Positions 8,776-52,079 of a stretch of DNA of 64,000 bases are shown piece after piece. Position 1 is the stretch's first letter; each line of letters begins with the position of its first letter. Origin of the DNA: an uncultured Acidobacteriota bacterium (GTDB taxonomy: Bacteria > Acidobacteriota > Terriglobia > Terriglobales > Acidobacteriaceae); the NCBI GenBank assembly GCA_963703735.1, contig CAVPFM010000007.1:52723-116722 (forward strand), in the 5' to 3' direction. A program made the translations under genes and the position numbers. Below the pieces are notes generated by a model that saw nothing but the letters and a program-made list of their open reading frames with translations, was not told where the DNA came from and did no database searches.

Positions 8776-8778
8776 AAA

Positions 8779-9651: not shown

Positions 9652-9655
9652 GAGT

Positions 9656-10699: not shown

Positions 10700-10713
10700 C
10701 CGTAGCAGAGACT

Positions 10714-11724: not shown

Positions 11725-11818
11725 TTTCCGATCCGAGCCCGACCTAAGCCTCATTCCAGAAACTGTTGTGGCTCAATTCCCTTCCGCTCCCTTCCGCATG
11801 TAAACTGTTGGGCTTCCC

Positions 11819-13830: not shown

Positions 13831-13833
13831 GGC

Positions 13834-16002: not shown

Positions 16003-16148
16003 TTATTGGAATGCTGTTTGAAGTCGAACTCACCACCGGAGCATCATTCGCATCGGAGCGCCGAATGCGAACCGCTAGTATAAAGCATCCTCGGAGTCTT
16101 GCTCGGATGCCGACTCAACTCTTGCACTGCCTTCTGCTGATAATGAAA

Positions 16149-16185
16149 CCCGGCACGGACCGCGCATCTGCGCTCTCCGTGCCGG
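16149..16185 (-). terminator. Intrinsic terminator downstream of the porin gene
   Basis: CCGGCACGGA...TCCGTGCCGG forms a 10-bp stem, with an inner GCGCA/TGCGC pairing. On the minus strand it is followed by TTTCATTATC. It lies 40 nt after the porin stop. Confidence 0.55.
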
Positions 16186-16224
16186 TAGCTGTTGCCTTGT
16201 CCTGAACCTAACTACGATCGCTCG

Positions 16225-18081: not shown

Positions 18082-18111
18082 CGTTCACTCTCCTTTTTTT
18101 CGCGATGCATC

Positions 18112-18135
18112 AAAACCCGGGGCGCCTTGGGTTTT
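18112..18135 (-). terminator. Hairpin at the pstS stop codon; possible attenuating terminator between pstS and the porin gene
   Basis: AAAACCC...GGGTTTT is a 7-bp stem with an inner GGCGCC. The U-run is part of, or follows, the 3' arm on the minus strand. The porin SD sequence lies 20 nt downstream. Confidence 0.4.
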
Positions 18136-21995: not shown

Positions 21996-23684
21996 CTATG
22001 AAAGCTCAGGGTCGGAATAGCACAATTCCACGACGGTGCAATCGTCGCTCAACGGATTCCCCGCGCAAAATTCAGTAACTGCGGAAAATATGCCTTCCAG
22101 CGTCGGCGACTTGGCGGCAGCCGCCTCCAACCGGAAGTCTTCAAAAAAATCTCCCATCGCGTTTTCCGCTTCCGTCACTCCGTCCGTTACGAGGATGAAG
22201 CGGTCGCCGGACCGCATCTGACAGGTCGAACTTTCAAATGTCGCATCCGGCAGCAATCCAACAGGAACATTGCCGTGCGGAGGGCGTATGACCTCGCCGG
22301 CGCAAACCAGCAGAGGAGGCACGTGGCCGCAATTCACGTATTCGAGTTCGCCATCGCGCCGTAGCCGTACCAGCAGCACAGTCGCATATTTTTCACCCAC
22401 CAGCTTGTCGGTAAAGAAGCGGTTCACCGCCGAAACCACATCGAGCAACGGCATTCCGGCGGTCAAATGCGAATAGATCATTCCCTGCAGCGTAGAAGCC
22501 AGTAGCGCTGCCGAAACTCCCTTGCCACTGACGTCCGCCAACACCACGGCCAAGCCCTCTTTGGTATTCACTGCATCAAAGAAGTCGCCACCAATTTCTT
22601 TGCAAGACAAGTTCTTGCCGCGCAGCTGCGCAAATGGCACTTCTGGAATCTTCACTTGCATCAGCCGCTGCTGGATGCTGGCCGCAATGCCCAACTCCTG
22701 CTGGTAACGCCGGGCCTCTTCTTCCGCTTGCACAAGGCGCGCATTCTCGATGAGCGACGCAGCTTCTGTCGCGATCGCGTGCAAAATGTCGTGGCCGACC
22801 CCGCTGATATCGCGGGAAGCAAAGCGCGAGTCGACGTACAAAACACCCATCGCCTGCGCCGCGTTCGCTCCGGGCAGAGGCGTCTGCGCATCGCGCGTCG
22901 CTTGCACCTGCATTTTGCGCAGCGGAATGCACACCACCGTCCGCAGATCGTAGGCGACTATACTCTGCCGGCCGGCCATATCGAGCGACTGGCTCGTGTC
23001 GGTCAGCAGAAACTCCGAATTCGCCCGCATCGATTCTTCCAGGATGGAGTGCGAAATCGTCTTGTCGTCGAGCAGCGGTTCCTTCTTGGCATTGCGCCCG
23101 GCCGCCAGCCGCAGCTTCCCTTCTTCGTCCTTCAGGAAGACGTAGGCGCGTTCCGCCCGCGTCAGTTGCAAGGTAACGTCCAGCATGGTGATCAGAATCT
23201 CATCCAGCACCCCCGCCGTATTTAACTTGCGCGCTGCTTCGAGGAACCAACGGAGGGTTTCAAGTTCCGTGGTTTCTGGCTTGATGCCGATGCCGGAAAT
23301 CTGGCTGAGAAATTCTCTCGCTGTGTTCGAAGTGGCATGCGCCGGGTTGAACAGGATGTAGGCCGAGTCGCGCGCGCCAAACTCAAGCCGGTCGCCGCGT
23401 TCCAGCTTCTGACGCTGGATCCGCTCCCCATTAACGAACGTGCCGTGTTTGCTTCCGAGATCGACCAGGAAGAATTCCTGGCCCTCCTGCATGATCTGTG
23501 CGTGATCGCGCGAGACTCGCGGGTCGGCGATGACCAGGTCTTTGTCCACCTTCCGCCCCACCGTAAAGGGCGTGCGGTTCAGGACAATGTTTTTCTGTTC
23601 GCTGCCCTGGACAAACACAAGGGCGGGAAAAACTCCGGATCCGGAGCCGTGATGGCTGTGATGACTGATTGTATTCAGGGCCAT
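21996..23684 (-). CDS. FHA - GAF - PP2C/SpoIIE-type serine/threonine phosphatase
   Basis: 562 aa. FHA domain (FTVGRKVDKDLVIADPRVSRDHAQI...GSKHGTFVNG). GAF domain (LTRAERAYVFLKDEEGKLRLAAGRN). PPM domain (GGDFFD, LADVSGKGVSAALL, NCGHVPP, LVTDGVTEA). Confidence 0.88.
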   Translation of the reverse strand: MALNTISHHSHHGSGSGVFPALVFVQGSEQKNIVLNRTPFTVGRKVDKDLVIADPRVSRDHAQIMQEGQEFFLVDLGSKHGTFVNGERIQRQKLERGDRLEFGARDSAYILFNPAHATSNTAREFLSQISGIGIKPETTELETLRWFLEAARKLNTAGVLDEILITMLDVTLQLTRAERAYVFLKDEEGKLRLAAGRNAKKEPLLDDKTISHSILEESMRANSEFLLTDTSQSLDMAGRQSIVAYDLRTVVCIPLRKMQVQATRDAQTPLPGANAAQAMGVLYVDSRFASRDISGVGHDILHAIATEAASLIENARLVQAEEEARRYQQELGIAASIQQRLMQVKIPEVPFAQLRGKNLSCKEIGGDFFDAVNTKEGLAVVLADVSGKGVSAALLASTLQGMIYSHLTAGMPLLDVVSAVNRFFTDKLVGEKYATVLLVRLRRDGELEYVNCGHVPPLLVCAGEVIRPPHGNVPVGLLPDATFESSTCQMRSGDRFILVTDGVTEAENAMGDFFEDFRLEAAAAKSPTLEGIFSAVTEFCAGNPLSDDCTVVELCYSDPELS

Positions 23685-23759: not shown

Positions 23760-25061
23760 CTACTCTGCCGCCGCGTCCTGCCGCAAGATGCGCTGCCCCA
23801 GCACAACGCTCCTGGTCACTAGCAGCAACGCTAAGACTAGGACTGGAATGGCAAAGTTTGAGTACAGAGGCAGCGCCCACAATGCCTGCAAACCCGACGC
23901 CGGTAGGAACAGCAACGCAGTCGCCAGTAACGCGGCCCCAATCCAGGGCAAAAACACTGCCAGCGCTGTCACCACAACTAGGAGCCGCGAGAGTCGGTTC
24001 GTCCGCCACAAATCTCCGATCGAGCGCACGATCAACATCACCGCCGGAATCAAAAGGAGCTGGTTGTATGGCGCGAACATCGGAATCACCACAAGCGTGA
24101 CGGCGAGAGCCAGAGAAACGGACCATTGGAAGTCTGCCGAGCCCTCAGGCGCCTTCCTTACCCGCCAAGTTAATAAGATAAAGGCGCCGACGAGAATCAT
24201 TGATAGGACCCTGCCCCACGCTGGAGTCAGGGCGACGTCGAGCACCGACTTTCCCCCGCCCGTGTACTGGTAATACGCAGCACAAGCCGCTCGAAATTCG
24301 TGGATCCATCCTGGTAATGCAGCTTCACCCGCAACCACGAGCGCTGCCAAAGTCAGGATGAAACTCCAAAGCGCACGCTGCCGGTCGCGCCAGTTACCAA
24401 CCACCCAAATGCACAGCCAGAGAGCCGGCAATGCCGACAGTTGTGGCTTGACGGTGGCAACAGCTAACAGGATCCCGGCCCAGATAAACTGCCGCCGAGC
24501 GAGGGCGCACATCGCGGCTGCCAGCAACGCCGCGACCAACACCGAAAGTTGTTGCAACTTCAGTCCTTGAATGGCCGGGAAGCAACTCAATGCGAGCAGT
24601 ATCCATTCGAACTTCCCCAGCCACGAAACGCGCCATCCGATCGCCTCCAACCAGAGCAGCGCGGATACAATCGTGATTGCCAAGAACATCCAGAAGAAGA
24701 CCGTATGCACGATTGAGAAAGGCAATCCTATCGTCGGCGCCAGCAAGAACACGACGTACAGCGGGTAAGCAAATGCCTGCTGGTCTTTGGGATCGTTCGG
24801 CCGCGCCGGATCCAGCGGGCGTCCGTAGTAGCCAATTTGAATCTCACGCGTGATGTCGGCCCCATACGGGTCGCGCCGGTGCCGCAGCAACTCCCGCGCG
24901 CCCAGCCATCGCGGATAAAGGTCGGAAAGATTTCCCCGAGGCCTCTGCTTCGCCAGTTCGTCCGCCCGCTGATGAGGAATCAAGATCAGTTGGACGTAGA
25001 GCCACATGCTGCCCGCAGCAAACAGCGCCAACAAAAGACCGAGTTTTGATCGACTCCCCAT
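23760..25061 (-). CDS. Polytopic membrane protein, DUF2029/GT87-like glycosyltransferase
   Basis: About 12 TM segments; ATVKPQ loop motif. Start set to the ATG at 25061 (MGSRSKLGLLL...) to avoid overlap with the divergent neighbour. The track start at 25124 is also possible. Confidence 0.6.
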   Translation of the reverse strand: MGSRSKLGLLLALFAAGSMWLYVQLILIPHQRADELAKQRPRGNLSDLYPRWLGARELLRHRRDPYGADITREIQIGYYGRPLDPARPNDPKDQQAFAYPLYVVFLLAPTIGLPFSIVHTVFFWMFLAITIVSALLWLEAIGWRVSWLGKFEWILLALSCFPAIQGLKLQQLSVLVAALLAAAMCALARRQFIWAGILLAVATVKPQLSALPALWLCIWVVGNWRDRQRALWSFILTLAALVVAGEAALPGWIHEFRAACAAYYQYTGGGKSVLDVALTPAWGRVLSMILVGAFILLTWRVRKAPEGSADFQWSVSLALAVTLVVIPMFAPYNQLLLIPAVMLIVRSIGDLWRTNRLSRLLVVVTALAVFLPWIGAALLATALLFLPASGLQALWALPLYSNFAIPVLVLALLLVTRSVVLGQRILRQDAAAE

Positions 25062-25101
25062 GTTCTGCAGCGTGTGGGCCCTACTAGAGAAGCGCGGACC
25101 C

Positions 25102-26055
25102 ATGTTACAACTTATGCTTCCCATGCCAGAGACGCGACCCCGTCTGCTGATCTCGACCGCTCTCGGCCTCGCGACCGGGCTGTTCTGCTGGTTCCTAATG
25201 GTCCGCCTTCATCAAGGCAGCGCGGATTTTTCGTGGGCCATTCGCGCCGCCCGCGACTTGCTCGCAAGACGGAATCCATACGACACTCCCTACCAACTCT
25301 ATCCTCTCTCCTCCGCCCTGTTCGGACTGCCATTCGTTCGGATGAGCCCTGAAATCGCCGCGGGAATCTTCTATGGACTCAGCACCGCGCTGCTCGCCTT
25401 CGGAATCTCGCGGCACGGATATCACCGGCTGCTGATTTTTCTTGCGTACCCGTACTGGGCGGGAATGTTGACCGCGCAATGGATTCCGCTCCTCATGGCG
25501 AGCGCGTTCTTTTCGCTTTTGCTACCCGTCACTCTTGCAAAACCACAGATCGGGCTCCCCGTTGCGCTGACTCACCTTGACCGGAAGGGCGCAGTCGCAT
25601 GTCTGGTGGTCCTGCTTTTGAGTTTCCTGATCATGCCGCACTGGGTTTCTCTGTGGCTGGCTCAACTGGGACGTTACGCGCGCTTCATCCCTCTACTCGT
25701 CCTTCCTGGGCCGCTGCTGGCAGCGGTATTGCTTCGCTATCGGGATCGGGATGCCTGGCTTCTGTTTCTCGGAGCGTGCATGCCGCAGCGGTGGTTCTAC
25801 GATCCGTTTTACTTGTGGCTGATCCCGAGAACTCGACGACAGATTGTCTACACGGCGAGCTTGAGCTGGATCCCAGGAATATGGCGGTGGTACCACGCCC
25901 CGCGCGATTTCACCGAAGTCGGCCGCTGGACGGTACTGTGGCTGTACTTGCCAATGCTAGTGGTCTTGCTGTTGCGGGAGACATCGCCAGACAACACACC
26001 AGGCCTAGAAGCACAAGAGCAAACAGATTCTCGTGCGAGTAGTGCAACGTCATAA
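25102..26055 (+). CDS. Polytopic membrane protein, smaller DUF2029-like paralogue
   Basis: About 9 TM segments; TLAKPQIG motif. The start is ambiguous (ATG at 25006, 25060, 25102, 25114 or 25123). I chose 25102, just before the basic stretch and the first TM segment. Confidence 0.55.
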   Translation: MLQLMLPMPETRPRLLISTALGLATGLFCWFLMVRLHQGSADFSWAIRAARDLLARRNPYDTPYQLYPLSSALFGLPFVRMSPEIAAGIFYGLSTALLAFGISRHGYHRLLIFLAYPYWAGMLTAQWIPLLMASAFFSLLLPVTLAKPQIGLPVALTHLDRKGAVACLVVLLLSFLIMPHWVSLWLAQLGRYARFIPLLVLPGPLLAAVLLRYRDRDAWLLFLGACMPQRWFYDPFYLWLIPRTRRQIVYTASLSWIPGIWRWYHAPRDFTEVGRWTVLWLYLPMLVVLLLRETSPDNTPGLEAQEQTDSRASSATS

Positions 26056-27202
26056 TCAGGTAGAGTGGCGTGAAAAACATGAGGGCCAGAACGACTTCGA
26101 GTCGTTTGGTGCCCGCCCCGAGTCGCTGAGACTGCTCTCCCAAGATACCGTCCACCGTAACCAAAACGGGCAGCAGCAGAATGCTCATGTCGTGGTTGTA
26201 GCTGTGATAACCGACCAGGAATGTCGCCACCATCGCGATCGAGAAACCCTTGTTCCAGGCATCGACTTCTCGCAAGTTCTCCGGGCGCCAATAACGAGAC
26301 GCCCAAACCAGAAGTCCGACCGACACCGCAATCAAGACCAGTTGTAGCCACGCCGCAGGAGGCTTCAGCTCGCTCCATCCGGTGAACAGACCCCGCAGGT
26401 TCGGCATGTTTTCCGGGACGATCACGCCCGGCGGCTGTTGTCGATTGATCTGCAAAATATATCGCGGGTAGTAAAGCAGTTGCTTCCAACCGACAACTGC
26501 CCACGAAACGGCGAAGTCGAATCCCAGGCCAAGAAGCATCCCTCCCACGGCGCGCCAGCGGCGGCGCAACAGCAAAACGAACACAAACGGCAAAACCAGG
26601 TGGAACTTAAATAGCCCCAGGCCGAGAAAAACTCCCGCTCGCATGTCTCGCGCGCGGCGGAACGAGCCATAGGCCAGGCAATAGAGGACCAGCAACAGGA
26701 TGGAATCCTGCCCCTGCAGCAGAGCGTATGCCACCGGAAAGAAGGCTAACGGGGCCAGTATGAGCAACGAGCGGAACCCTGATTCAACTGTGGGGAGCCA
26801 CGGGCGCATCAGATATGCGCTCACGCCGATCAGTAGCAGATTCACGAGAAACCACAACAAATAGGCGCGAAGATACGGCAAATAGGTCATGCAGAGGAAT
26901 GGCACCGCTTCAAACGGAGGATGGTTGAAGGGCAAAGGATGGTCGCGAACGGCCGCGCCCGGGACAACTTCCCGCCAGGTTGCCCTTTGCGCATCGGCGC
27001 TGTATAGGACCGGGCCCCGATCCTGCCGGAGCATGAGTCCAGCCGTATAAAAGATGCTGAAATCGGGGGATCCGGCCTGAACCCGGTAACGGGCCAGCCA
27101 GAAAACCGCGCAATGCAGCGCGATCATTCCCAAACAAAACGACGTCAGCGCAAACCGGAGCTTGGGCCTGTCGGACATGAGGCGCGGTCGATTGTATCCC
27201 AC
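25910..27202 (-). CDS. Polytopic membrane protein, DUF2029/GT87-like glycosyltransferase
   Basis: 430 aa, about 12 TM segments. N-terminal region typical of the family (GSPDFSIFYTAG). The 3' end overlaps the convergent neighbour by 146 nt. Confidence 0.6.
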   Translation of the reverse strand: MGYNRPRLMSDRPKLRFALTSFCLGMIALHCAVFWLARYRVQAGSPDFSIFYTAGLMLRQDRGPVLYSADAQRATWREVVPGAAVRDHPLPFNHPPFEAVPFLCMTYLPYLRAYLLWFLVNLLLIGVSAYLMRPWLPTVESGFRSLLILAPLAFFPVAYALLQGQDSILLLVLYCLAYGSFRRARDMRAGVFLGLGLFKFHLVLPFVFVLLLRRRWRAVGGMLLGLGFDFAVSWAVVGWKQLLYYPRYILQINRQQPPGVIVPENMPNLRGLFTGWSELKPPAAWLQLVLIAVSVGLLVWASRYWRPENLREVDAWNKGFSIAMVATFLVGYHSYNHDMSILLLPVLVTVDGILGEQSQRLGAGTKRLEVVLALMFFTPLYLIMTLHYSHENLFALVLLGLVCCLAMSPATARPLALASTATVPSSGRLR

Positions 27203-27416: not shown

Positions 27417-27584
27417 ATGATCCTTGAGGCAGCGCGTCAGCTTTGGTCCGAAGAGCAGGGGCAGGACATCGCCGAATATGCAGTCATGCTGGCGGTGATC
27501 CTGGTGATCGTCGTCGGAACGATCCGGTTAATCGGGTCCAACGCCAACAATGTGTTCTCCAACGTCGCCAGTTCGATTCAGTAG
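27417..27584 (+). CDS. flp: Flp family type IVb pilin
   Basis: Start re-set to the ATG at 27417, with AGGAGA 7 nt upstream. 55 aa. Flp motif G-QDIA-EY followed by the hydrophobic helix AVMLAVILVIVVGTI. Confidence 0.88.
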   Translation: MILEAARQLWSEEQGQDIAEYAVMLAVILVIVVGTIRLIGSNANNVFSNVASSIQ

Positions 27585-27638
27585 CGAATAAAAACGCCCA
27601 AGTTCGACGGAAGCAGTGACGCAGTTTAAGGAAATGGA

Positions 27639-28508
27639 ATGAATCGCACACGTCTGTTAATGATCGGGGTTCTGGCGCTTGGGTTGGGCCTGTTCGTAAG
27701 TATGTACGTCTACAAGAGCTTGCAAGCGAAAAGCGGTGCAGGCGGCGACCCCGGCGTCGATGTCATGGTGGCCGCGAACGATTTGCAGGTGGGCGCACGC
27801 GTCGAAGAACACGACATCAAGATCATTCGGATACCTGGCGGAGATCTCCCGCCGGGCGCGCCCAGAAAGCGTTCCGAAGTCGTTGGGCACGGCGTCATCA
27901 TTCCGATCTCCCGCGGTGAATTCATTCTGCCCAATCGTCTTGCCGCCGAGAATGCCGGATCGGGCCTCCCATCTCTGATTCCGCCCGGGATGCGCGCCGT
28001 TTCCGTTCGCGTGAATGAAGTTGTATCCGTGGCTGGATTTGTGACTCCCGGAACACGCGTGGATGTTCTGCTCACCGGAACGCCCAGCAACAACGGGGAT
28101 CAGGAAACCACGACGGTTCTGCAAAATGTTGCAGTTCTCGCTTCGGGTCATACGCTGGAACGAACTTCAACTGGCGAGGCCCAGAATACGGCCGTGATTA
28201 CGCTTCTGGTTTCTCCCGACGACGCGCAGCGACTCACTCTCGCCAGTTCGCAAGGACATATTCAACTCGCGCTGCGCAATCCGCTCGACACCAAGCAAGA
28301 TGAAGTGCCGTCGTCCAACTCCAAGGGTCTTTATAGGTTGATGGCGACACCCGAACCTGTCGTGCACGCCCCGGTTCATCGCGTTGCGACCCCGAAAGCC
28401 GCTCCGCCTCCTCCGCCCGCAACCGGGGTCAGCGTAGAGGTCTATCAGGGCGACAAGAAAGTCGATGTAGTGAAATGTGGCGATGACGGTTGTGGTGAGG
28501 CCAAGTGA
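27639..28508 (+). CDS. cpaB: Flp pilus assembly protein CpaB/RcpC
   Basis: 289 aa. N-terminal TM segment, SAF-like domain (VMVAANDLQVGARVEEHDI) and RcpC beta-clip domain. Position in the tad operon. Confidence 0.85.
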   Translation: MNRTRLLMIGVLALGLGLFVSMYVYKSLQAKSGAGGDPGVDVMVAANDLQVGARVEEHDIKIIRIPGGDLPPGAPRKRSEVVGHGVIIPISRGEFILPNRLAAENAGSGLPSLIPPGMRAVSVRVNEVVSVAGFVTPGTRVDVLLTGTPSNNGDQETTTVLQNVAVLASGHTLERTSTGEAQNTAVITLLVSPDDAQRLTLASSQGHIQLALRNPLDTKQDEVPSSNSKGLYRLMATPEPVVHAPVHRVATPKAAPPPPPATGVSVEVYQGDKKVDVVKCGDDGCGEAK

Positions 28509-28582
28509 TCCGTAGAGATTCGATGTTGCTCAACGCCACGTTGCACACCGGTCAGTTTCCTCACAGGGAGACCAATCTGACA

Positions 28583-29977
28583 ATGAACGTTCGCATGTCT
28601 TTGCTTGGGGCCCTGCTGCTCGCGTCGCTTATCCTGCCCGCGTCCTCCGAAACCGTGCAGCAAGCAGACGCCCCGGCGCAGCCTCAGAGCCCGGTTCCGA
28701 CCGGAACCCAGACCGCTAACCTTCCGGCTCAGTCCCAAGCCACGCAAGGATCGGCGCCCCTGCGCGTGATGGTGGGCAAATCGCTGCTCATCAATACGAC
28801 GGAGCGCCTGAAGCGCATCTCTATCACCGACCCAAACATCGCCTTTGCCCAGCCGATCACTCCGACGCAGATTCTCGTGCACGGCAAATCTCCCGGAGAA
28901 GTTTCGCTTCTCATCTGGGATGAACTGGAGCGCTCGCGTAGCTTCGACCTGCGGGTTGACGTCGACGTCAGCGCCTGCGCCGAAGAAGAGCATCGCGTTT
29001 TCCCCGACGAGCAAATTACGGTCACGCCATCGCGGGCGGCCATCGTTCTCTCCGGACACGTTTCAACCGAGGATGTGGCCAAGCGCGCCGGCGAGCTTGC
29101 CAGCGCCTATTCGCCGAAGGTCGTGAATGTTCTGACCTTCGGTCCCGTCGGCGCACAAGAAGTTCTGCTGCAGGTAAAGTTTGCTGAAGTGGATCGCACC
29201 GCCCTCACACAGCTGGGCGTGAATTTTCTTTCCAACGGCGCCGCGAATACCATCGGCACGATTACAACTGGACAGTACGGCGGCTTCGGACCGCAAACTT
29301 TAACCAACCAAAACGGCACCACGACCACGACCGGTCAGACTCTTAACAACGTGTTGAACCTGTTCGTCTTTCGTCCGGACATTAATTTCGGCGCTGTGAT
29401 TGAAGCTCTGGAAACTAAGAATCTTCTTCAAATCCTGGCCGAGCCGAATCTCATCGCCGTCAACGGCAAGAAAGCCAGCTTCCTCGCCGGCGGACAATTT
29501 CCCTTCCCCATCGTGCAGCCGGGCGCTGGCTTTACCGCAGTCACCATCTCATTCAAAGAGTTCGGCGTGCGGCTGGAGTTCACCCCCGTCATCACTCCGA
29601 ACGGCAGCATCCATCTAACCGTCGCTCCCGAAGTCAGCACGCTCGATTTTGCCAACGCGCTCACCATCTCCGGATTCACCGTCCCTGCGCTTAGCACCCG
29701 CAAGGCTGAAACTGAATTCGAAGTCCAGGACGGACAGAGTTTCGTAATCGCCGGTTTGATGGACAACCGCGTGACCGATATTTACAACAAAATCCCGGGG
29801 CTCGGGGACATTCCGATCCTGGGGGCGTTCTTCCGCAGCAAGAGTCTTCAAAAGAGCAATTCGGAACTGATGGTGCTTTGCACGGTGCATCGTGTTTCAC
29901 CGACCACGGACCCGCCGGCTCCGCCGAAGAACGCGAAGCCTTTCATGGATACGGGCAAGTTTGATAAGAGCAAGTAG
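28583..29977 (+). CDS. cpaC: Tad secretin CpaC/RcpA
   Basis: Start re-set to the ATG at 28583 (MNVRMSLLGALLLASLILPASSE signal peptide). Pilus-N domain (LRVMVGKSLLINT...ISITDPNIA). Secretin domain (LLQILAEPNLIAVNGKKASFLAGGQFPFP...GDIPILGAFFRS). Confidence 0.9.
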   Translation: MNVRMSLLGALLLASLILPASSETVQQADAPAQPQSPVPTGTQTANLPAQSQATQGSAPLRVMVGKSLLINTTERLKRISITDPNIAFAQPITPTQILVHGKSPGEVSLLIWDELERSRSFDLRVDVDVSACAEEEHRVFPDEQITVTPSRAAIVLSGHVSTEDVAKRAGELASAYSPKVVNVLTFGPVGAQEVLLQVKFAEVDRTALTQLGVNFLSNGAANTIGTITTGQYGGFGPQTLTNQNGTTTTTGQTLNNVLNLFVFRPDINFGAVIEALETKNLLQILAEPNLIAVNGKKASFLAGGQFPFPIVQPGAGFTAVTISFKEFGVRLEFTPVITPNGSIHLTVAPEVSTLDFANALTISGFTVPALSTRKAETEFEVQDGQSFVIAGLMDNRVTDIYNKIPGLGDIPILGAFFRSKSLQKSNSELMVLCTVHRVSPTTDPPAPPKNAKPFMDTGKFDKSK

Positions 29978-30047
29978 CTACGAATTCCTCTCGTGATGGG
30001 CTCGGCACGACAGGAGCAAGTCTTAACGTGAAGGGCCACAGATTGCT

Positions 30048-31220
30048 ATGCCAGAGCTGACAGTCGTCATCGTGGCCACCGACAACGAGCAGCGCGCCCT
30101 TCTGCAGGTGCTCGTTGACAACACCAGTGTGGCCAGGACCGCTCACACTTGCGCAAGTTATCCGCTGGCTTCATCGGATCCGGTCACCCGCCGCGTGCGC
30201 GCCGCCAATCCCGATGTAACTCTGGTCGATATTCCTACCGACAATGCACCCCAGGCACTCCGTGCCATCGAACTGCTTCACCAGGAAATGCCGGATCTCG
30301 CCATCTTTGCCATCGGCAATCTGAATCAGCCGCAGGTGATTGTGAACGCCATGCGCGCCGGCGCAAAGGAATTCATCGAGCGTCCCACCACCACGACCGA
30401 TCTTCTCGAAGCTTTTGTGCGCCTCTCGGCCGCGCAACGCCGCGGACAGCAAGAAGGCTTGCGAGGCAAGGTGTTTTCCGTCGTCAATGCTAAAGGTGGA
30501 AACGGCGCGACGACTGTCGCCGTGAATCTGGCGCTGGCGCTGCAGTCCGCATACAGCCAAACGGCTCTAGTCGACCTGGCTCCCCTGGGCCACGCGGCGC
30601 TGCACATGAACCTGAAGCCAGTGTTCACCGTGGCCGACGCCACCCGCAACTTGCACCGCATGGACGCTTCCCTGCTCGAAAGCTTCATGACGCGGCACAA
30701 TGGAGGATTGCAGCTGCTCGCGGGAACGAACGTGCCCGCAGCTCTAGATCCGTCGACCGCAGAGTTTGTGCGTCTGTTCGATATGCTGGTCACGCATTAC
30801 CGTTACGTCGTGGTCGATGCCTCTTCGCGCTTCGACGCAGCCACCCGGCTCATCGCCAGTTTGTCCGAAACCGTGTTGCTCGTTGCCTGCAGCGATGTCG
30901 CATCGCTATGGAGCGCAGCCCGCGTTCAGCAGTATTTGGGAGAAACCGGCGGGCGCGAGCGCGTCCGGTTAGTTTTGAACCGGTTTCGCAAAGTTCCAGG
31001 CTTCAGCGAAGCCGACGCCGAGGCTGCGGTCGGCGCCAAACTCCTGTGGCGGGTGCCTAATCAGTATTTCGCCGTCTCCAGCGCGATCGATCGCGGAACT
31101 CCGGTGATGGATCAGCGCAACTCCGAGATCGCCCGCTGTTTCTCCGGATTGGCGCAGGAATTGACGCGCAACGACGCTGACGTGAAGCGCGCGGCGTGGT
31201 CATTGTTCAAGTCAGTTTAG
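30048..31220 (+). CDS. cpaE: CpaE/TadZ: receiver-like domain plus ParA/MinD-type ATPase
   Basis: 390 aa. N-terminal CheY-like fold. Deviant Walker A motif NAKGGNGATTVAVNLA. Confidence 0.85.
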   Translation: MPELTVVIVATDNEQRALLQVLVDNTSVARTAHTCASYPLASSDPVTRRVRAANPDVTLVDIPTDNAPQALRAIELLHQEMPDLAIFAIGNLNQPQVIVNAMRAGAKEFIERPTTTTDLLEAFVRLSAAQRRGQQEGLRGKVFSVVNAKGGNGATTVAVNLALALQSAYSQTALVDLAPLGHAALHMNLKPVFTVADATRNLHRMDASLLESFMTRHNGGLQLLAGTNVPAALDPSTAEFVRLFDMLVTHYRYVVVDASSRFDAATRLIASLSETVLLVACSDVASLWSAARVQQYLGETGGRERVRLVLNRFRKVPGFSEADAEAAVGAKLLWRVPNQYFAVSSAIDRGTPVMDQRNSEIARCFSGLAQELTRNDADVKRAAWSLFKSV

Positions 31221-31233
31221 AATTTAGGGGCTT

Positions 31234-32529
31234 ATGGCAAATCTTCAATCGTTCGAGCGCACCGACATTCAGCAGGTGAAAGCCGACCTGCACCGCAAGG
31301 TTCTCGACCGTTTGGACCTGGAAAAACTAGGCAAGGCGGCCGGAGACTCGGCTCGCGATGAAGTCCTGGTAGTGATCCGTGCGGTGGTCAACGGCGAAGT
31401 CGTTCCTCTCAGCTTTGCTGAACGCGAACGTCTTTCGCGTGAAATTCTCGATGAGATCTTCGGCCTCGGTCCGTTAGAGCAACTCCTCAAAGATCCCAAC
31501 ATCTCCGATATCCTGGTCAACCGTTACGATCGGGTGTACGTGGAAAAGGCGGGCAAACTCGAACTCACCACGCTGACGTTCAAGGACAACGTGCACTTGA
31601 TGCAGATCATCGAGCGCATCGTTTCCCGCGTAGGCCGCCGCGTCGACGAGTCCTCTCCAATGGTTGATGCGCGCCTCACCGATGGCTCCCGTGTGAACGC
31701 CATCATTCCGCCGCTCGCCCTCGACGGTCCGTGTCTCTCCATTCGCCGTTTCGGACGTGAGCCAGTCACCGCGCGGCAGATGATTGAAAATCAGACGCTC
31801 ACCGAATCGATGCTGGAACTCCTCTCGGCCATGGTCAAGGGTCGCCTCAACATCCTGGTATCTGGCGGAACCGGCGCCGGCAAGACCACCCTGCTCAACG
31901 TGCTCTCGGGGTACATTCCTAACACTGAGCGCATCGTCTCCATCGAAGACGCGGCCGAATTGCAGCTCAAGCAGGAAAACATCGTCCGCCTGGAAACTCG
32001 CCCGCCCAACATCGAAGGCAAGGGCGCTGTCCGCCAGCGGCAGCTGGTCATCAACAGTTTGCGTATGCGCCCCGACCGCATCGTAGTTGGCGAGGTGCGT
32101 GGCGAGGAAGCCTTCGACATGTTGCAGGCCATGAACACGGGTCACGAAGGATCGCTCACCACGGTCCACGCCAACTCTCCGCGCGATGCCATGGCTCGTA
32201 TCGAAAACATGGTCTCGATGGCCAATCTCAACATTCCGGAGCGGGCCGTACGCCAGCAAATCTCCTCCGCCGTGCATGCGGTGATTCAAATTGCCCGCCT
32301 GTCCGACGGTACGCGCAAAGTGACCACGATCTCCGAAGTCACCGGAATGGACGCCGATTCGATTGCGATGCAGGACATCTTTTCCTTCGATCGCACCGGC
32401 ATTGATGAGAACGGAAAGGTCCGCGGTGCGTTTCGAGCCACCGGGACTCGTCCGAAGTTTGCCGATCGCTTGGCAACCGCAGGCGCCCGTCTACGGCCTG
32501 CGCTGTTTGAATCGAAGGCCGAGGTCTAG
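31234..32529 (+). CDS. cpaF: Tad secretion ATPase CpaF/TadA
   Basis: 431 aa. Walker [15 protein letters not shown], Asp box [12 protein letters not shown], Walker [13 protein letters not shown], His box [11 protein letters not shown]. Confidence 0.95.
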
Positions 32530-32536
32530 GTCCAAT

Positions 32537-33508
32537 ATGACTGCAGCTCTGATCGCGCTGGTTGTCTTCGGAGTGGTCGCGCTCCTCGCGTTCGCGGTGT
32601 TCTCTCTTCTTGATCAGCGCAGCGCGCAAGCCCGCTTGATCAAAGAGCGACTGGCCAACGAGCGCAAAGCTCCCGATCTTGCCGCCGACGAAGAACTGGC
32701 GCTGCTGCGGGACGAGCAACTCAGCCGAATCCCCGCCCTCGACAACCTGCTTCGCCGTTCGGCTCGCGTCTCCGACCTGCAGAAAATGCTGCTACAGGCA
32801 GGCATGGACATGCGCGCTGGAAATTTCCTGGGATTCTCGGCGCTCAGCGGAATCGTCGTCACCATCGTCACCTATATTCTCAGCAAGCGCGTTGAAATCG
32901 CGTGGATTGGCCTGCTCGTCGGCTTCGTCCTGCCGTATTCCTACGCTTCGTATAAGCGCAATAAGCGCTTCGAGAAGTTCGAGGAACTCTTCCCGGAAGC
33001 CATCGACACTCTGGCTCGCGCCGTCCGAGCTGGTCACGCCTTTACCACCGCGCTCGAGATGATTACCAGCGAAATTTCAGAGCCGATCGCCGGCGAGTTC
33101 CGGCAGCTCTATGAGGAACAGAAGTTCGGCATGCCTGTCCGCGATGCTCTGCTGAATCTGACGGACCGGATGCCGCTGGTCGACGTGAAATTTTTTGTAA
33201 CAGCTGTCATGTTGCAGCGCGAGACCGGCGGCAACCTCGCGGAAATTCTCGACAACCTCTCTTATGTCATTCGCGAGCGCTTCAAAATACAGCGCCAGGT
33301 TCGCGTATATACCGCCCAGGGCCGCCTTACGATGGCCCTCCTGATGGGCATGCCGCCCATCATCGTCACCGTGATGCTGGTGCTGAATCCCAGCTTCATT
33401 CACCCGCTGTTTGCGGATCCCATCGGCCACACTCTTTTGGTCGCGGGAATCACTTTGCAAACCATTGGATATTTCGTGATCCGGAAAATTATCCGGATTC
33501 AGGTTTAA
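32537..33508 (+). CDS. tadB: Tad platform protein TadB
   Basis: Start re-set to the ATG at 32537 (MTAALIALVVF...), 7 nt after the cpaF stop. T2SF-like domain with 3-4 TM segments. Confidence 0.85.
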   Translation: MTAALIALVVFGVVALLAFAVFSLLDQRSAQARLIKERLANERKAPDLAADEELALLRDEQLSRIPALDNLLRRSARVSDLQKMLLQAGMDMRAGNFLGFSALSGIVVTIVTYILSKRVEIAWIGLLVGFVLPYSYASYKRNKRFEKFEELFPEAIDTLARAVRAGHAFTTALEMITSEISEPIAGEFRQLYEEQKFGMPVRDALLNLTDRMPLVDVKFFVTAVMLQRETGGNLAEILDNLSYVIRERFKIQRQVRVYTAQGRLTMALLMGMPPIIVTVMLVLNPSFIHPLFADPIGHTLLVAGITLQTIGYFVIRKIIRIQV

Positions 33509-33510
33509 CT

Positions 33511-34422
33511 ATGCTGCCTCTGCTGCTGATTGTCGTCGTCTTCATCACCGTCGTGGTGGGCGTGTTCGCCTTCGGCGCTGCCGCCGTAACGCCGAGTTCC
33601 ATGCTGGGCGCCCGCCTCCGCGCTCTTGGTGGACAGCAGGCACAACCGGCGGAGAACCGTCCCGCCATCCGGGAACGCATTGAGCAGGCGCTCGATCCTC
33701 TCAGCAAAGCCATTCCGCTCTCCGCTTCCGACGTCTCGCGCACGCGCCGCTGGCTGATTCAGGCCGGCTTCCGCGATGCCATTGACGTCAATTACTACTT
33801 CGGCGTGCGTCTTTTGGCGGCCGCCGTTGGTTTCGTCGGAGTGGTCGTCTTCTCCGGATTTGCCAATCCATTTCTGCTCGCCGGCATCTCGGGACTTGGA
33901 TTCTTCCTTCCGCGCTTCATGTTGAAGCGCATGATTCGGGACCGCCAGAACCGCATTCGCCTCGGATTGCCCGATGCCCTTGACTTGACCGTCATCTGCG
34001 TTGAGGCTGGCTTGGCGCTCGATCAGGCTCTGATGCGCGTAGGCCAGGATTTGCACCACGCCCATCCCGACCTCAGCGATGAATTTCATCTTGTCAACCT
34101 GGAAATGCGCGCCGGCAAGCCCCGCGCCGAGGCTCTCCGCAATCTGGTGGAGCGCACTGGTGTTGACGATATCCGCTCCCTTGTTGGTACACTGATTCAG
34201 ACCGACCGCTTCGGTACCAGCGTCGCCCAGGCTCTCCGCGTGCATTCCGATTCCCTCCGCACGGAACGCCGGCAACGCGCCGAAGAACAAGCTGCCAAGA
34301 CCACCATCAAAATGGTCCCCCCACTGGTAATCTTTGTTCTGCCGTCGATCATTTTTGTCACGATCGGTCCCGCCGTGATCGAATTGATCCGGCAACTGGG
34401 GCCGGTTTCAGGCGGCCGCTAG
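33511..34422 (+). CDS. tadC: Tad platform protein TadC
   Basis: 303 aa. Starts 2 nt after the tadB stop. T2SF-like domain (LPDALDLTVICVEAGLALDQAL). Confidence 0.85.
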   Translation: MLPLLLIVVVFITVVVGVFAFGAAAVTPSSMLGARLRALGGQQAQPAENRPAIRERIEQALDPLSKAIPLSASDVSRTRRWLIQAGFRDAIDVNYYFGVRLLAAAVGFVGVVVFSGFANPFLLAGISGLGFFLPRFMLKRMIRDRQNRIRLGLPDALDLTVICVEAGLALDQALMRVGQDLHHAHPDLSDEFHLVNLEMRAGKPRAEALRNLVERTGVDDIRSLVGTLIQTDRFGTSVAQALRVHSDSLRTERRQRAEEQAAKTTIKMVPPLVIFVLPSIIFVTIGPAVIELIRQLGPVSGGR

Positions 34423-34458
34423 CGGCGCAACCAGTTCCGCAGAACAACACGGGGTCTC

Positions 34459-34857
34459 ATGGCAGTTCTCTCCAGCGAAGGGCAGGCTTTCAATCAGACG
34501 CGACAGGCCTACCTCGCCACGTCACTGGCCGTCGCCGACACCCACTGGACTCGCCTGCGTGGGCTGGTTGGCCTGGGGGCCGATGACTTCCGTAATGGTT
34601 CAGGACTCTGGATCGTTCCCTGCCATGGCGTTCATACTCTAGGGATGGGGTTTCCCATTGATGTTGTCTATTTGGATCGGGCCATGACGGTGATACACGT
34701 TCAACCGGAATTGCGGCCGTGGCGATTCGCTCCAGTGCGTAGACAGGCTGCGTCGGTCTTGGAACTGCCGTGTAACGTCGCTGCCGAGACTCGAACGGCG
34801 GTGGGCGATAGAATTGAAATCACTCTCGCAAAGGATCCCAGCCAGCCAACTGCATGA
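34459..34857 (+). CDS. DUF192 (COG1430) family protein
   Basis: 132 aa. Core GLWIVPCHGVHTLGMGFPIDVVYLD is typical of DUF192. The stop overlaps the next start (ATGA at 34854-34857). Confidence 0.7.
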   Translation: MAVLSSEGQAFNQTRQAYLATSLAVADTHWTRLRGLVGLGADDFRNGSGLWIVPCHGVHTLGMGFPIDVVYLDRAMTVIHVQPELRPWRFAPVRRQAASVLELPCNVAAETRTAVGDRIEITLAKDPSQPTA

Positions 34858-37394
34858 GCAGCGTTCTCCAACTCGACGAGGCGGTCACCGTTCGTGACGT
34901 CCGGGACGCTCCTCGCCTTCTGGTTGAGTGGTCCTCGCCCTGGCAGGAATTCGTCAGCTCCATCAAGCCGGCGCTGATGCGATCGGAAGCCCGTCTGGCG
35001 GGAGAAGCTCCGTTTGGATTGATTCCTCTGCGGATCATGGCGCCCTCGTATTTCCTCGAGGCATTTCTGATCCTGGCGGCAATCTTTGTGCAGTACAAAG
35101 TCGCTGAACTGCGCCCTTATGTCTCGCCGCGATTATCGCCCCATGACGTTATTTATTACACCGGCGACGAACTGCCTCGTACCGAAGATCTCGGCGGCGC
35201 TCAGGCGGGAACGGCAGGCCGCGCTGGCGGCGATGAGTCGCACCATCGCACCCAGACCATCAAGATCGCGCGCGGCGGATCTCTCACTCCGCGCGTAGTC
35301 GATGCGCCGAATCTTAAGCTCACTCCTACGCACGATGCCGTAGCGAACCTGCTGGCCGTCAAGCCCGATCCCGGTCCACCGCCTGCGGAAGGGTTGCGTT
35401 CTGCGCGCTCGGCTCCGAATCTCGCTACGTCGATTGTGGCCCCAGCTCCCAATGTCATTCGCGACTACACGCGCAACGGAGTTCAACTCGATTCCGTGAT
35501 TGCGCCCGCTCCGAATGTCACGCGCGATCGCACGCTGACTGCGCCGACTTTCAACGCGACACTGATTCCTCCTGCGCCCAGCGTTCCGGATGATCACAAG
35601 CTCGTCGCTCCCGCGCTGGCTCCGTCGGTCATTGCTCCTGCGCCGCGAGTTTCACGGGATCGCTCGCTTACCGCCCGGTCACTCGACCCATCGGTCGTAG
35701 CACCCGCTCCAAGCGTCGCGCGCGACCGGGCTCGTTCCAGCCCCGCGCTTTCCTCGAATGTGATTCCGCCCCCTGGCGCATTCAGCCGCGAAATCTCTAG
35801 CACGCCCGTGCAGATGACGAATACGTCGGCGGTGCCTCCGCCCGTTTCCGCGCCCGAGCGCGCCACACTCCGGAATCCGAAGCTGTCGCTGCCATCGCCT
35901 TCCGTGGTCGCTCCTCCACCTTCATCCGACATCTCCCCCGACATGCGCCGTCTCGCGAGCGGTAGCGTACAAGATCCTGCGAAGACCGTCGTCCCTCCAC
36001 CGCCATCACAATCCGGCAGCGGAACGTTCATGAGCAGTCTGATCGGCAAGATTTTTGGAGCCACCGAGGTTGTGCCTCCGCCACCGTCCGTGAACACAGG
36101 AAGCACCCCCGGCGGACCGTCAACCTCACTCTCCAGCGATGTCGTCCCGCCTCCGCCCACAGTCGGCTCGGCGGCGGCTGGTGGTAATCCACGTGGCAGT
36201 CGCAACGGTGCCGGCGCATCGCTCGGTGCCAATGCGGTGGCTCCGCCTCCGGCCGTTGGAGCAAATGGCGGCACCGGCGCTCGTGCCAATGGCGCTGCGC
36301 CCTATCTCGGAAATCCCGGCGTGGTCCCGCCGCCCCCGTCGCTCTCGGGAGCAGGCGGCGGCACCGGCAACTCGGGAGGCGGCGCCGGCGCTCCCGGAGG
36401 AACTCTGCTCGCTAACAATATCGTGCCTCCGCCGCCATCAGTTGGCGGAGGATCGGCTGCGGGCGGGTCGGGTTCTGGCCGCAAGGGCGCTGGACTCGGC
36501 GCTCCCACGGATGTTGGCGCCGGTCTAACCCCGCCCACTAACGGCGGCAGCGGGACCAATGCTGGCGCAGTCATTTCCACTCAGCCCGGAGCCAAAGTCG
36601 GCATGCCCACCAGCGGCGGCTCAGGGTCGCTCGCGATGTCCCCCTCTGGGGCAGACAAATCCGGACTAGGTGGTGTGGGCAGCGGAACCGGCATCGGCCG
36701 CGACAACGGCCCCGGCAGCTCTCTCAATGGTCAAGGCGGCGGCGCTGCGAAAACCGGCGCCGGGCGCGGCTCCGATCCAAGCTCGAACGGAGGCATTTCT
36801 CCGACCCCGGGACCAGGAGGGGCTGGAAATTTGACTGCGGGTAACCCGCCCGTCCGGGGCGTCGACATCAGCGGTGGCAGCAGCATTGTCACCCTGCCTG
36901 GATTTGGCTCGGACAGTGGCGTAGCTAGCGAACCTGCTACACCGGGTCGCACCCCTGTGAAACAGCGAGACGCGCTGGGCGTAACGGTCGTAGCAACAGC
37001 CAGTTCCGGCGGAGCCTTCGAGCCTTACAAGAATCTTCTCCGCGGCGAGAAGTACACCACCTATTTGGATACGACGCTCGGGACGGTTGTCATGGAATTT
37101 GCCGACGAATCGACCACGGGGCATCCTTTCGGCGGAACTCTAGCCGCGCCAACGCCGATTAAAACCGATCTCGCGGAGGGCCTGCCCCGCGCGCGCATGG
37201 TCGTCACCTGCACGCTCGACGCGTCCGGCAATCTTAGAAATATCCGTGTTCTCGAAGCTGGACCCGCCACAATGACCGCCAAGGTTGTCGCAGCGCTCCG
37301 TGCCTGGAAATTCCAGCCCGCAACGCGAGGAACTCAGGCGGTGGAAGTAACCGCAATCCTGGGCTTCGGAATCGACACCAACGACCGCTTCTAA
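34854..37394 (+). CDS. Giant membrane-anchored Pro/Gly-rich protein with a C-terminal TonB-C-like domain
   Basis: 846 aa. One TM segment (SYFLEAFLILAAIFVQY, about aa 65-81). Fourteen [IVA][IV][AP]P[AP]P.. repeats, then a long Gly-rich stretch. The last 90 aa or so resemble TonB_C (MVVTCTLDASGNLRNIRVLEAGP...VVAALRAWKFQPATRGTQAVEV). Confidence 0.75.
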   Translation: MSSVLQLDEAVTVRDVRDAPRLLVEWSSPWQEFVSSIKPALMRSEARLAGEAPFGLIPLRIMAPSYFLEAFLILAAIFVQYKVAELRPYVSPRLSPHDVIYYTGDELPRTEDLGGAQAGTAGRAGGDESHHRTQTIKIARGGSLTPRVVDAPNLKLTPTHDAVANLLAVKPDPGPPPAEGLRSARSAPNLATSIVAPAPNVIRDYTRNGVQLDSVIAPAPNVTRDRTLTAPTFNATLIPPAPSVPDDHKLVAPALAPSVIAPAPRVSRDRSLTARSLDPSVVAPAPSVARDRARSSPALSSNVIPPPGAFSREISSTPVQMTNTSAVPPPVSAPERATLRNPKLSLPSPSVVAPPPSSDISPDMRRLASGSVQDPAKTVVPPPPSQSGSGTFMSSLIGKIFGATEVVPPPPSVNTGSTPGGPSTSLSSDVVPPPPTVGSAAAGGNPRGSRNGAGASLGANAVAPPPAVGANGGTGARANGAAPYLGNPGVVPPPPSLSGAGGGTGNSGGGAGAPGGTLLANNIVPPPPSVGGGSAAGGSGSGRKGAGLGAPTDVGAGLTPPTNGGSGTNAGAVISTQPGAKVGMPTSGGSGSLAMSPSGADKSGLGGVGSGTGIGRDNGPGSSLNGQGGGAAKTGAGRGSDPSSNGGISPTPGPGGAGNLTAGNPPVRGVDISGGSSIVTLPGFGSDSGVASEPATPGRTPVKQRDALGVTVVATASSGGAFEPYKNLLRGEKYTTYLDTTLGTVVMEFADESTTGHPFGGTLAAPTPIKTDLAEGLPRARMVVTCTLDASGNLRNIRVLEAGPATMTAKVVAALRAWKFQPATRGTQAVEVTAILGFGIDTNDRF
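35433..36443 (+). repeat. Fourteen coding repeats of the motif V-V-(A/P)-P-(A/P)-P-(S/N)-V
   Basis: IVAPAPNV, VIAPAPNV, LIPPAPSV, VIAPAPRV, VVAPAPSV, VIPPPGAF, AVPPPVSA, VVAPPPSS, VVPPPPSQ, VVPPPPSV, VVPPPPTV, AVAPPPAV, VVPPPPSL and IVPPPPSV, at aa 194-530. The first five have a period of about 22 aa. Confidence 0.9.
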
Positions 37395-49723: not shown

Positions 49724-49761
49724 GGAATGCTCCTGTGAGTCTCGCAGCAGTTTCTCACCGT

Positions 49762-51996: not shown

Positions 51997-52079
51997 TGAG
52001 ACCTCCACAGACGTGATGTCGCGGGTCGTTCGAGACCCGTTTCGTGTACCGGGGATTGGACCGCTGGGAACCTGCGTTA

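Follow-up and report, generated by a model that had tools for sequence, protein, structure and literature searches.

The window analysed here is a stretch of 64,000 nucleotides from a contig of an uncultured Acidobacteriota bacterium, and all coordinates refer to it unless another locus is named. It contains a Tad pilus operon that ends in a gene for a DUF192 protein and a gene for an 846-amino-acid (aa) TonB-family protein. Nine co-directional genes on the + strand span positions 27417–37394; they were identified with Pfam and NCBIfam profiles, and flp by its translated motif. The first gene, flp (27417–27584), encodes a 55-aa Flp-type prepilin whose translation, MILEAARQLWSEEQG/QDIAEYAVMLAVILVIVVG, contains the G-x4-EY processing motif. 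The canonical Flp motif G/QDIAEY (EEQG/QDIAEYAVMLAVILVIVVG) is readable in the translation, flp gave no Pfam profile match (Flp_Fap did not score), and the product shows 77–96% identity to those at the equivalent position in related loci. Then follow cpaB/rcpC (27639–28508; PF16976 1e-30, SAF domain, TIGR03177 4e-61), the secretin gene cpaC/rcpA (28583–29977; Secretin 2e-44, T2SS-T3SS_pil_N 2e-13) and cpaE/tadZ (30048–31220), which encodes a receiver-like domain followed by a ParA/MinD-type ATPase (AAA_31, ParA, Response_reg and TadZ_N matches). The motor ATPase gene cpaF/tadA (31234–32529; T2SSE 4e-62, TIGR03819 4e-100) precedes the genes of the two platform proteins, tadB (32537–33508; 323 aa, T2SSF 2.5e-19) and tadC (33511–34422; T2SSF 3e-19). 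The start of tadB was corrected to the ATG at 32537, 7 nt past the cpaF stop, from the opening of the open reading frame (ORF) at 32363, and the homologue in a related locus (L001) is likewise 323 aa long. The cpaC ORF opens at 28505, and the ATG at 28583, which stands before the signal-peptide-like sequence MNVRMSLLGALLLASLILP, is most likely the true start. The last two genes encode the DUF192 protein (34459–34857; 132 aa) and the TonB-family protein (34854–37394), hereafter called the long protein.

With the corrected starts, the intergenic gaps from flp to the DUF192 gene are, in order, 54, 74, 70, 13, 7, 2 and 36 nt. The stop of the DUF192 gene overlaps the start of the long gene in ATGA at 34854–34857. 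The recomputed coordinates confirm an earlier reading made from the letters alone (the sequence-only reading), which had described packing with 2–75 nt gaps, DUF192 36 nt after tadC and the ATGA overlap. That reading had named a promoter and a terminator between tadC and DUF192 as a finding that would speak against its proposal; a scan found neither kind of site there, and over the whole region the counts of such sites were not above shuffled expectation. Neither Rfam nor tRNA scans gave a match in the window. The Flp-type prepilin, CpaF ATPase, TadB/TadC, TadZ/CpaE, RcpA/CpaC secretin and RcpC/CpaB are all present, and on balance we read the operon as a canonical Tad (type IVc) pilus core to which two extra, largely uncharacterised components have been added.

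The long protein: architecture, family and position

The long protein matches TonB_C (PF03544, 4.9e-6) over residues 781–834 with 27.3 bits against a cutoff of 24.6, which is its sole Pfam-type domain match, and TIGR01352 with 30.1 bits against a cutoff of 27.1. In an AlphaFold model from 44 homologues, the only confident parts are a helix at residues 29–41, a transmembrane (TM) helix at 59–86 and a C-terminal domain at 711–840 (pLDDT 73–92). About 620 residues, from about residue 90 to 710, have a pLDDT below 50 and are predicted to be disordered. The cytoplasmic N-terminus carries the motif LLVEW-x3-W-x2-F (residues 22–33; 34917–34952), in which L23, W26, W30 and F33 are nearly invariant among 44 sequences. 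The motif is specific to the long-protein family among the proteins of the fetched loci (L084 upward). Residues 1–100 of the relative P0293 (L094, 10001–12115) hold three tandem copies of it ahead of the TM helix, an arrangement that would fit a repeated docking peptide. The single TM helix (residues 59–86; 35028–35111) has a Kyte-Doolittle peak of 2.07 at residue 61 and a pLDDT of 80–87. It contains S-Y-F-L-E, that is S-x3-E, in the clade of the window, while distant family members have S-x3-H at the equivalent position; the TonB-type S-x3-H signature is thus absent from the TM helix of the 846-aa protein itself.

The TM helix is followed by a conserved membrane-proximal periplasmic box (residues 95–180; 35136–35393) with the pattern YYSGDELP-x3-D-GGA-x2-G-x2-GRAGG ... 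VVDAP-L-LP ... AVANLLA ... PGPPP. Its residues P108, D112, G115, G119, G122 and G126 are invariant down to 28% identity, and AlphaFold gives the box no confident fold. Next comes a Pro-rich repeat spacer (residues 181–560; 35394–36533) with 12 V-(V/A)-P-P-P-P units, 17% Pro and a pLDDT below 50, whose length differs among relatives (proteins of 500–855 aa). A Gly/Ser-rich region (residues 561–705; 36534–36968) has 28% Gly, many glycine columns that are invariant throughout the family, and low-confidence strands only. The C-terminal folded domain (residues 706–846; 36969–37391) consists of a beta-rich part and then a TonB C-terminal fold (pLDDT 73–92). The top PDB matches of this domain in Foldseek are TonB C-terminal domains (6i97_D, E 1.6e-4, TM-score 0.63 by the target; further 6fip, 1u07 and 2gsk), and a profile search of PDB sequences reached TonB at 3e-4. 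The Pro-rich periplasmic spacer characteristic of the TonB family is present as well. Hydropathy, AlphaFold and Foldseek together bear out the layout proposed in the sequence-only reading, namely an N-terminal TM helix, a Pro/Gly spacer of about 600 aa and a TonB_C end.

More than 120 full-length relatives were found at an identity of at least 68%, with Candidatus Sulfotelmatobacter or Terriglobales as source names. At E ≤ 1e-3, the family comprises 460 representatives of 50%-identity clusters, of which the complete-looking ones have about 500–855 aa and both ends conserved. A relative is encoded in 249 GTDB species genomes, and the family is known from Terriglobia only. We fetched 80 species loci containing full-length relatives of 53–88% identity and mapped the window proteins onto them by tblastn. 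In 73 of these loci cpaB, cpaC, cpaE, cpaF, tadB, tadC and DUF192 lie upstream in the same order, and flp was detected in 72 of the 73. Six of the remaining loci are cut by the contig end and keep what fits, and one (L083) has no upstream DNA. The long protein ends a Tad operon in 79 of the 80 loci. The downstream genes BNR and orf585 and the upstream GT87 gene vary between loci while the operon stays constant.

Relatives of only 33–47% identity in four loci keep the place after tadC-DUF192, each with a 4-nt overlap: P0274 (L084, 635 aa), P0294 (L085, 720 aa), P0339 (L086, 604 aa, in a locus without cpaE) and P0293 (L094, 704 aa). An NTGA overlap between the DUF192 gene and the long gene is kept in 61 of 85 loci, distant members included. 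Because the arrangement is identical in every related locus with enough DNA, it is not due to chance. The more distant P0355 shares only the last 170 residues (hhalign 99.8%, E 5e-28) and the overall layout; its gene adjoins TadE-TadE-TadG, standing after them, and has no DUF192 beside it. P0356 and P0357 lie in non-Tad surroundings, and since they are weak, TonB_C-only matches in unrelated contexts they mark the outer edge of the family. Gene order and similarity support the long protein as a real Tad-linked accessory, whose family appears to occur only at the ends of Tad operons or beside Tad pseudopilin genes.

The 64-kb window lacks a prepilin peptidase, TadE/F/G and TadD, as the sequence-only reading had claimed. 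PF01478, PF07811 and PF13400 had no Pfam match among about 50 large ORFs (ORFs shorter than 120 aa lay outside the profile scans), and TadV, TadE and TadG from a Terriglobales relative, used as tblastn queries, matched no frame of the window at E ≤ 0.01. The further claim that the two terminal genes stand instead of the usual accessory genes is refuted by L094, whose operon reads Peptidase_A24-TadE-TadE-cpaB-cpaC-TadG-cpaE-cpaF-tadB-tadC-DUF192-long protein. Since this full set is held in one operon, the pair accompanies the usual accessories and does not substitute for them. TadE and two TadG genes also lie alongside the pair in L084. Because these two relatives carry their accessory genes together with the pair, the TadV, TadE and TadG genes lacking in the window probably lie elsewhere in this genome. 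None of these loci showed a TadD of TPR type.

The DUF192 protein and its Tad-associated subfamily

The DUF192 protein matches PF02643 at 3.9e-15, with 56.2 bits against a cutoff of 27 and over positions 3–96 of the 96 in the profile. It is predicted to be a short cytoplasmic protein and has no hydrophobic N-terminus, signal peptide or TM segment (maximum KD19 1.15). Its AlphaFold model (pLDDT 72.8) matches 3M7A (E 5e-7) and 3PJY (E 2e-6) in Foldseek with TM-scores of 0.63–0.69. A profile search reaches the same two structures at an E of about 1e-3, and the single sequence gave no match in PDB; the identity to the two is only 17–18%. None of the fold or profile matches has a known function; 3M7A and 3PJY both lack functional annotation. 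The residues R32, G35, H59, T60, M63, D73 and E102 are invariant, which suggests a conserved binding or catalytic pocket. We define here a short subfamily of mostly about 110–140 aa (a few ORFs are longer), lacking a signal peptide and with N-x-TR ... R-x-x-GL-x-G ... HT-x-x-M, located inside a Tad locus. The 132-aa protein of the window, encoded after tadC, belongs to it.

In a plasmid survey, tblastn of the window DUF192 against 72,556 plasmids gave 15 matching records, of which seven were inspected, and a Tad or type IV pilus locus surrounds DUF192 in all seven. Five Streptomyces plasmids have the order cpaF-tadB-tadC-small gene-TadE-TadE-TadG-LysM protein-DUF192, an Alkaliphilus plasmid has prepilin peptidase-DUF192, and a Moraxella bovis plasmid has cpaB-secretin-ATPase-tadB-tadC-DUF192-TadE. 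These links cover three further phyla, Actinomycetota, Bacillota and Pseudomonadota. The longer 3M7A-type DUF192 was used as a control. It matches 145 plasmids, and Tad genes were nearby in none of the four that were inspected, where its neighbours are korB/parB, a cold-shock gene, DUF456 and a bacteriocin exporter. As a side observation, plasmids typed as conjugative account for 81 of the 145 records matching the 3M7A type; in the single one of these that was inspected, pYKBG020 (L095, 5842–6318), this gene stands directly after korB/parB and before relaxase genes.

Metagenome contigs were scanned with an alignment that has the Alkaliphilus DUF192 as its first sequence, which gave 80 loci with a GC content of 26–69%. 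Tad genes were detected by tblastn in 62 of them and lie directly upstream of DUF192 in 60 of the 62. The gene before DUF192 is a CpaF-like ATPase gene in 16 loci, a TadC-like gene in about 16, cpaB-secretin in about 22 and a prepilin peptidase gene in two; two other loci have the arrangement of the window, with tadC before DUF192 and the long protein after it. No signal-peptide-like start was found among the DUF192 ORFs of the metagenome loci, and the Tad-linked relatives examined have neither a signal peptide nor a TM segment. DUF192 is also present in monoderm Tad loci that have no secretin. When a diverse DUF192 profile was used to look for homologues, nearly all matches were close proteins from Sulfotelmatobacter and Streptomyces, and no new lineages were gained.

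The genes after DUF192 differ by lineage, often with a 4–8-nt overlap: three FHA-domain proteins, large cytoplasmic helix-turn-helix (HTH)-like proteins, GT87, PAP2 or PMT_2. In Tad loci with a GC content of 40–43% (L111, 531–2987; L112, 955–3129; L149, 6279–8066; L153, 7237–8871), the ATPase gene and DUF192 are followed by a protein family of 544–818 aa. Its members have little or no Pfam match (a weak HTH_33 in L153) and almost no TM-like segments (one marginal peak, again in L153), and they share the N-terminus MGVIYKLKPE...SKSSIN, which is helix-turn-helix-like, and a conserved C-terminus.

The surveys support a strong enrichment of the short DUF192 subfamily in Tad loci across distant lineages, as judged from gene neighbourhoods, and no such enrichment of the 3M7A-type subfamily. 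Enrichment next to Tad genes was the test proposed in the sequence-only reading, and both genes passed it, the long protein with 79 of 80 loci and DUF192 with 62 of 80 metagenome loci and seven of seven plasmids.

Proposed roles, alternative readings and flanking genes

We propose that DUF192 and the long protein are probably separate accessories of the Tad machine. The sequence-only reading had treated the two genes as one accessory module. The Tad link stood for both, and the single module did not, DUF192 being far more widespread. The pair is not a conserved module because DUF192 occurs in many lineages without the long protein, overlapping whatever follows, and it is not a fixed one since P0355 sits by TadE-TadE-TadG without DUF192. 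DUF192 would be a soluble cytoplasmic factor linked to Tad in both diderm and monoderm bacteria. Being cytoplasmic, it could not reach the secretin, the outer membrane or the cell wall; the proposal that it links the platform to these parts does not hold for a protein with neither a signal peptide nor a TM segment. As it is cytoplasmic and also present in monoderm loci that lack a secretin, it would serve the cytoplasmic or inner-membrane side of the machine, acting on the CpaF motor, the TadB/TadC platform, or the prepilin and its peptidase.

The long protein, known from Terriglobia only, would be a bitopic protein of the inner membrane that derives from TonB. Its predicted parts are a short cytoplasmic motif, a TM helix, a periplasmic box, about 530 disordered Pro/Gly-rich residues and a C-terminal domain of TonB fold. 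By analogy with known connectors, it most likely works across the envelope, and its binding partners and scaffold role are proposed on the same basis: it may bridge from the Tad platform in the inner membrane to peptidoglycan or to an outer-membrane partner, either the CpaC secretin or another one. We put the probability of this reading as a whole, a canonical Tad system with a cytoplasmic DUF192 factor and a TonB-like connector as separate parts, at roughly 55%.

Several observations weigh against this reading. The TonB_C match of the long protein is barely over its cutoff. Its linker of about 530 residues is far longer than the periplasm needs, and a simple tether may not be everything. The invariant glycines at residues 561–705 and the box at 95–180 imply structure or partners that the AlphaFold model does not resolve. 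Synteny that is kept inside a single bacterial class may in part come from common descent. No Tad gene was found in 18 of the 80 metagenome loci; nine of these 18 have less than 1.1 kb of upstream DNA, and about six have at least 4 kb. The neighbour of DUF192 varies by lineage among ATPase, TadC, secretin and peptidase, and its direct partner cannot be read from context.

The alternative that survives best, which we hold to be possible although doubtful, is a dedicated two-protein module, in which DUF192 binds the LLVEW-x3-W-x2-F N-terminus as a chaperone or as an adaptor to the Tad platform and translational coupling sets the stoichiometry. The NTGA overlap, kept in 61 of 85 loci and in distant members too, agrees with such a partnership. 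So does the 58-residue conserved cytoplasmic N-terminus, which is rare for TonB-like proteins and whose motif is nearly invariant and tripled in P0293. P0355, the sole family member that does not adjoin DUF192, also lacks the motif, but this co-absence is one case. The coupling is not specific to the pair, since DUF192 overlaps any next gene by 4–8 nt (FHA, GT87 or PAP2), and short DUF192 proteins occur in the Tad loci of many lineages that have neither the long protein nor its motif. A related generalisation, that DUF192 goes with a large envelope protein, was rejected, as in other lineages DUF192 is followed by cytoplasmic HTH-like proteins, FHA proteins or glycosyltransferases. The large LysM protein beside DUF192 on the Streptomyces plasmids was also rejected as a counterpart of the long protein; it has no similarity to it, and its sequence reads as that of a membrane protein with several passes and a large C-terminal part in the cytoplasm.

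We consider it unlikely that the long protein is an energy-transducing TonB paralogue, pulled by a motor of ExbBD, TolQR or AglRQS type encoded elsewhere, that gates or assembles the secretin or aids pilus dynamics. The TonB C-terminal fold and the Pro-rich spacer would suit such a role, and the TM helix of distant members has an S-x3-H that matches the S16-x3-H20 part of the TonB TM signature. In the clade of the window, however, this His is replaced by Glu. The C-terminal domain starts with L-P in the family consensus, compared with Y-P in E. coli TonB. No MotA_ExbB or ExbD match was found among the large ORFs of the window by Pfam or in the gene tables of seven related loci. The precedent of GltG/GltJ, which involves a TolQR-like motor (PMC11761067), speaks for this role.

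A wider claim would combine this idea with a larger role of DUF192: the short subfamily would be a widespread, overlooked core-like Tad factor, perhaps an enzyme or adaptor acting on the prepilin or CpaF, and in Terriglobia a dedicated TonB paralogue, gating or assembling the secretin, would couple the Tad system to a proton-driven motor. We regard it as improbable, a little more so than the motor role taken by itself; if true, the Tad pilus would be assisted by proton-motive force. That the two genes are chance neighbours, the long protein being an ordinary nutrient-uptake TonB and DUF192 an unrelated housekeeping gene, is effectively excluded: TonB_C proteins are many in Acidobacteria (the window has another at 51238–52365) and the weak homologues P0356 and P0357 have non-Tad contexts, but the position is constant while the flanks change across the 80 species loci and in relatives of as little as 33% identity, DUF192 has independent Tad links on plasmids of three other phyla and in metagenome loci of 26–69% GC, and no terminator-like site separates tadC from DUF192. 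Our order of likelihood among the alternatives is the partnership of DUF192 with the N-terminus, then the role energised by proton-motive force, then chance adjacency.

Around the operon, two GT87 (GT-C) glycosyltransferase genes lie upstream and divergent on the − strand (23760–25124 and 25910–27202; PF09594 5e-10 and 8e-27). GT87 genes also flank the Tad operon in L001, L086 and L094. Elsewhere GT87, PAP2_3, PMT_2 or Glyco_transf_22 flank the operon or follow DUF192, and GT-C genes recur in L001, L086, L094, L121, L132 and L150. This recurrence may point to a pilus-linked glycosylation of the pilin or the envelope, and tentatively the GT87 genes possibly belong to the functional neighbourhood of the Tad system. 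Further upstream lies a gene for an FHA-GAF-SpoIIE (PP2C-type) phosphatase (21996–23684, − strand; SpoIIE 2e-40, FHA 1e-20). A gene of this type also stands upstream of the Tad operon in L085 (1–452), and three FHA-domain proteins directly follow DUF192 in low-GC Tad loci (L105, 10296–15168). These genes hint at phospho-threonine-based regulation of such Tad systems, and the phosphatase possibly regulates the present locus, which we suggest only tentatively.

About 12 kb downstream of the operon, a second CpaF paralogue of 452 aa is encoded on the − strand (49762–51120), with 64% identity to the operon CpaF over 414 residues and no other Tad genes around it. Directly upstream of it lies the gene of a 375-aa TonB-family protein with two TonB_C domains (51238–52365, − strand; 4e-43), and DUF5996 follows the paralogue gene (48794–49765); this is a second pairing of an ATPase with TonB_C in the window. 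A second assembly of the same population (L002; ERZ25039506 contig_55834) covers window positions 24878–47391 and is 100% identical in the flanks, DUF192 and the long gene. It is 10–20% divergent, with frameshifting indels, across cpaB-tadC (about 27.9–34.5 kb) and the PNPase gene (44.5–47.4 kb), and the reading frames of the window copy are intact. The divergence is likely due to consensus mixing of related strains in conserved genes, with recombination as the alternative. A phosphate/polyphosphate cluster at 7274–19139 (phoU, pstB, two pst permeases, a CHAD protein, ppx, a histidine phosphatase, ppk and a PstS-like binding protein) is unrelated to the Tad finding.

Comparison with known systems

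Tad pili serve adhesion, biofilm formation and colonisation in many bacteria. Acidobacteria are an abundant soil phylum, and in our view experimental knowledge of their surface structures is sparse. Three points are new here: by sequence comparison, what appears to be a Tad-dedicated family of TonB paralogues in Terriglobia; the breadth and the subfamily specificity of the link between DUF192 and Tad; and the picture of two independent accessories that stand beside the usual ones and do not replace them. The broad survey of type IV filament systems treats the Tad parts list as settled; its Tad model contains neither gene, and DUF192 and TonB are not mentioned in it. Two largely unstudied parts would extend this list. 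A literature search under COG1430 and UPF0127 returned nothing.

The occurrence of DUF192 in one tad operon has already been published. In Bulleidia extructa and a few related Firmicutes genomes, a 112-aa DUF192 protein is encoded by the penultimate gene of the tad operon, and no function or distribution was claimed for it (PMC12786226, 2025). As in our window, that protein is short, its gene is penultimate and its structural matches are 3PJY, 3M7A and 6OZD (PMC12786226). The last gene there encodes a coiled-coil protein and not a TonB-like one (PMC12786226), and the link described here reaches Terriglobia, Streptomyces and Moraxella as well as 62 of 80 diverse metagenome loci and is specific to a subfamily. 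The window DUF192 shares family and fold with 3M7A (Saro_0823) and with 3PJY (R01717), which its depositors named 'signal peptide protein'. A family with two solved structures and no assigned role thereby gains a testable context in the Tad loci of diderms and monoderms.

The long protein resembles TonB in its C-terminal fold, its Pfam and TIGRFAM membership, its N-terminal TM anchor and its Pro-rich spacer. It differs in a conserved cytoplasmic N-terminus of 58 residues, in the S-x3-E of this clade and in the extra periplasmic blocks. It is about 3.5 times as long as E. coli TonB. In the related loci examined it never stands beside exbBD and is found in Tad operons instead. The slot after tadC that it holds is the place of tadD in classical loci. 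FimV and TsaP are peptidoglycan-binding partners of the secretin of type IVa pili. From its position, the long protein may fill a niche equivalent to that of TadD/RcpB and FimV/TsaP in secretin assembly or anchoring; unlike them, it has no TPR, lipoprotein or LysM feature and shows no homology. TadD is essential for secretin assembly, as cited by Denise et al. If the long protein replaces secretin assembly factors of TadD type, it would represent another way of building or anchoring a secretin.

GspB/OutB anchors the secretin to the inner membrane and peptidoglycan (PMC9239104), and ExeB has been described as TonB-like with a Pro-rich region (PMC4098917). Like the long protein, these are bitopic inner-membrane proteins of a machine of the type IV filament family, and they aid secretin assembly or anchoring; the analogy is a functional one only. 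GspB uses its periplasmic HR domain to bind the N0 domain of the secretin, whereas no HR domain was detected in the 846-aa protein, which had no profile or fold match besides TonB_C. The long protein differs further in having a real TonB C-terminal fold and in the absence of an ATPase partner of GspA/ExeA type.

The closest architectural match is with GltG/GltJ of the Agl-Glt gliding machine of Myxococcus xanthus, and it is a match of architecture only. In these proteins an N-terminal domain in the cytoplasm is followed by a TM helix, a long stretch of disordered periplasmic sequence and a domain like the TonB C-terminal domain (PMC11761067), a layout which the long protein shares, and both would serve an envelope machine that is not a transporter. 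The N-terminal modules are FHA or ZnR-GYF in GltG/GltJ and a short LLVEW motif in the long protein, and the disordered region of the latter is several times longer and has conserved Gly-rich blocks. The machine is a Tad pilus in the present case, and no Agl-like or TolQR/ExbBD-like motor genes were seen near the locus. Judged by this analogy, envelope-spanning connectors in non-transport machines, exemplified by GspB/ExeB and GltG/GltJ, would gain a third case in the long protein; the TonB C-terminal fold is carried by GltG/GltJ, while ExeB is only described as TonB-like.

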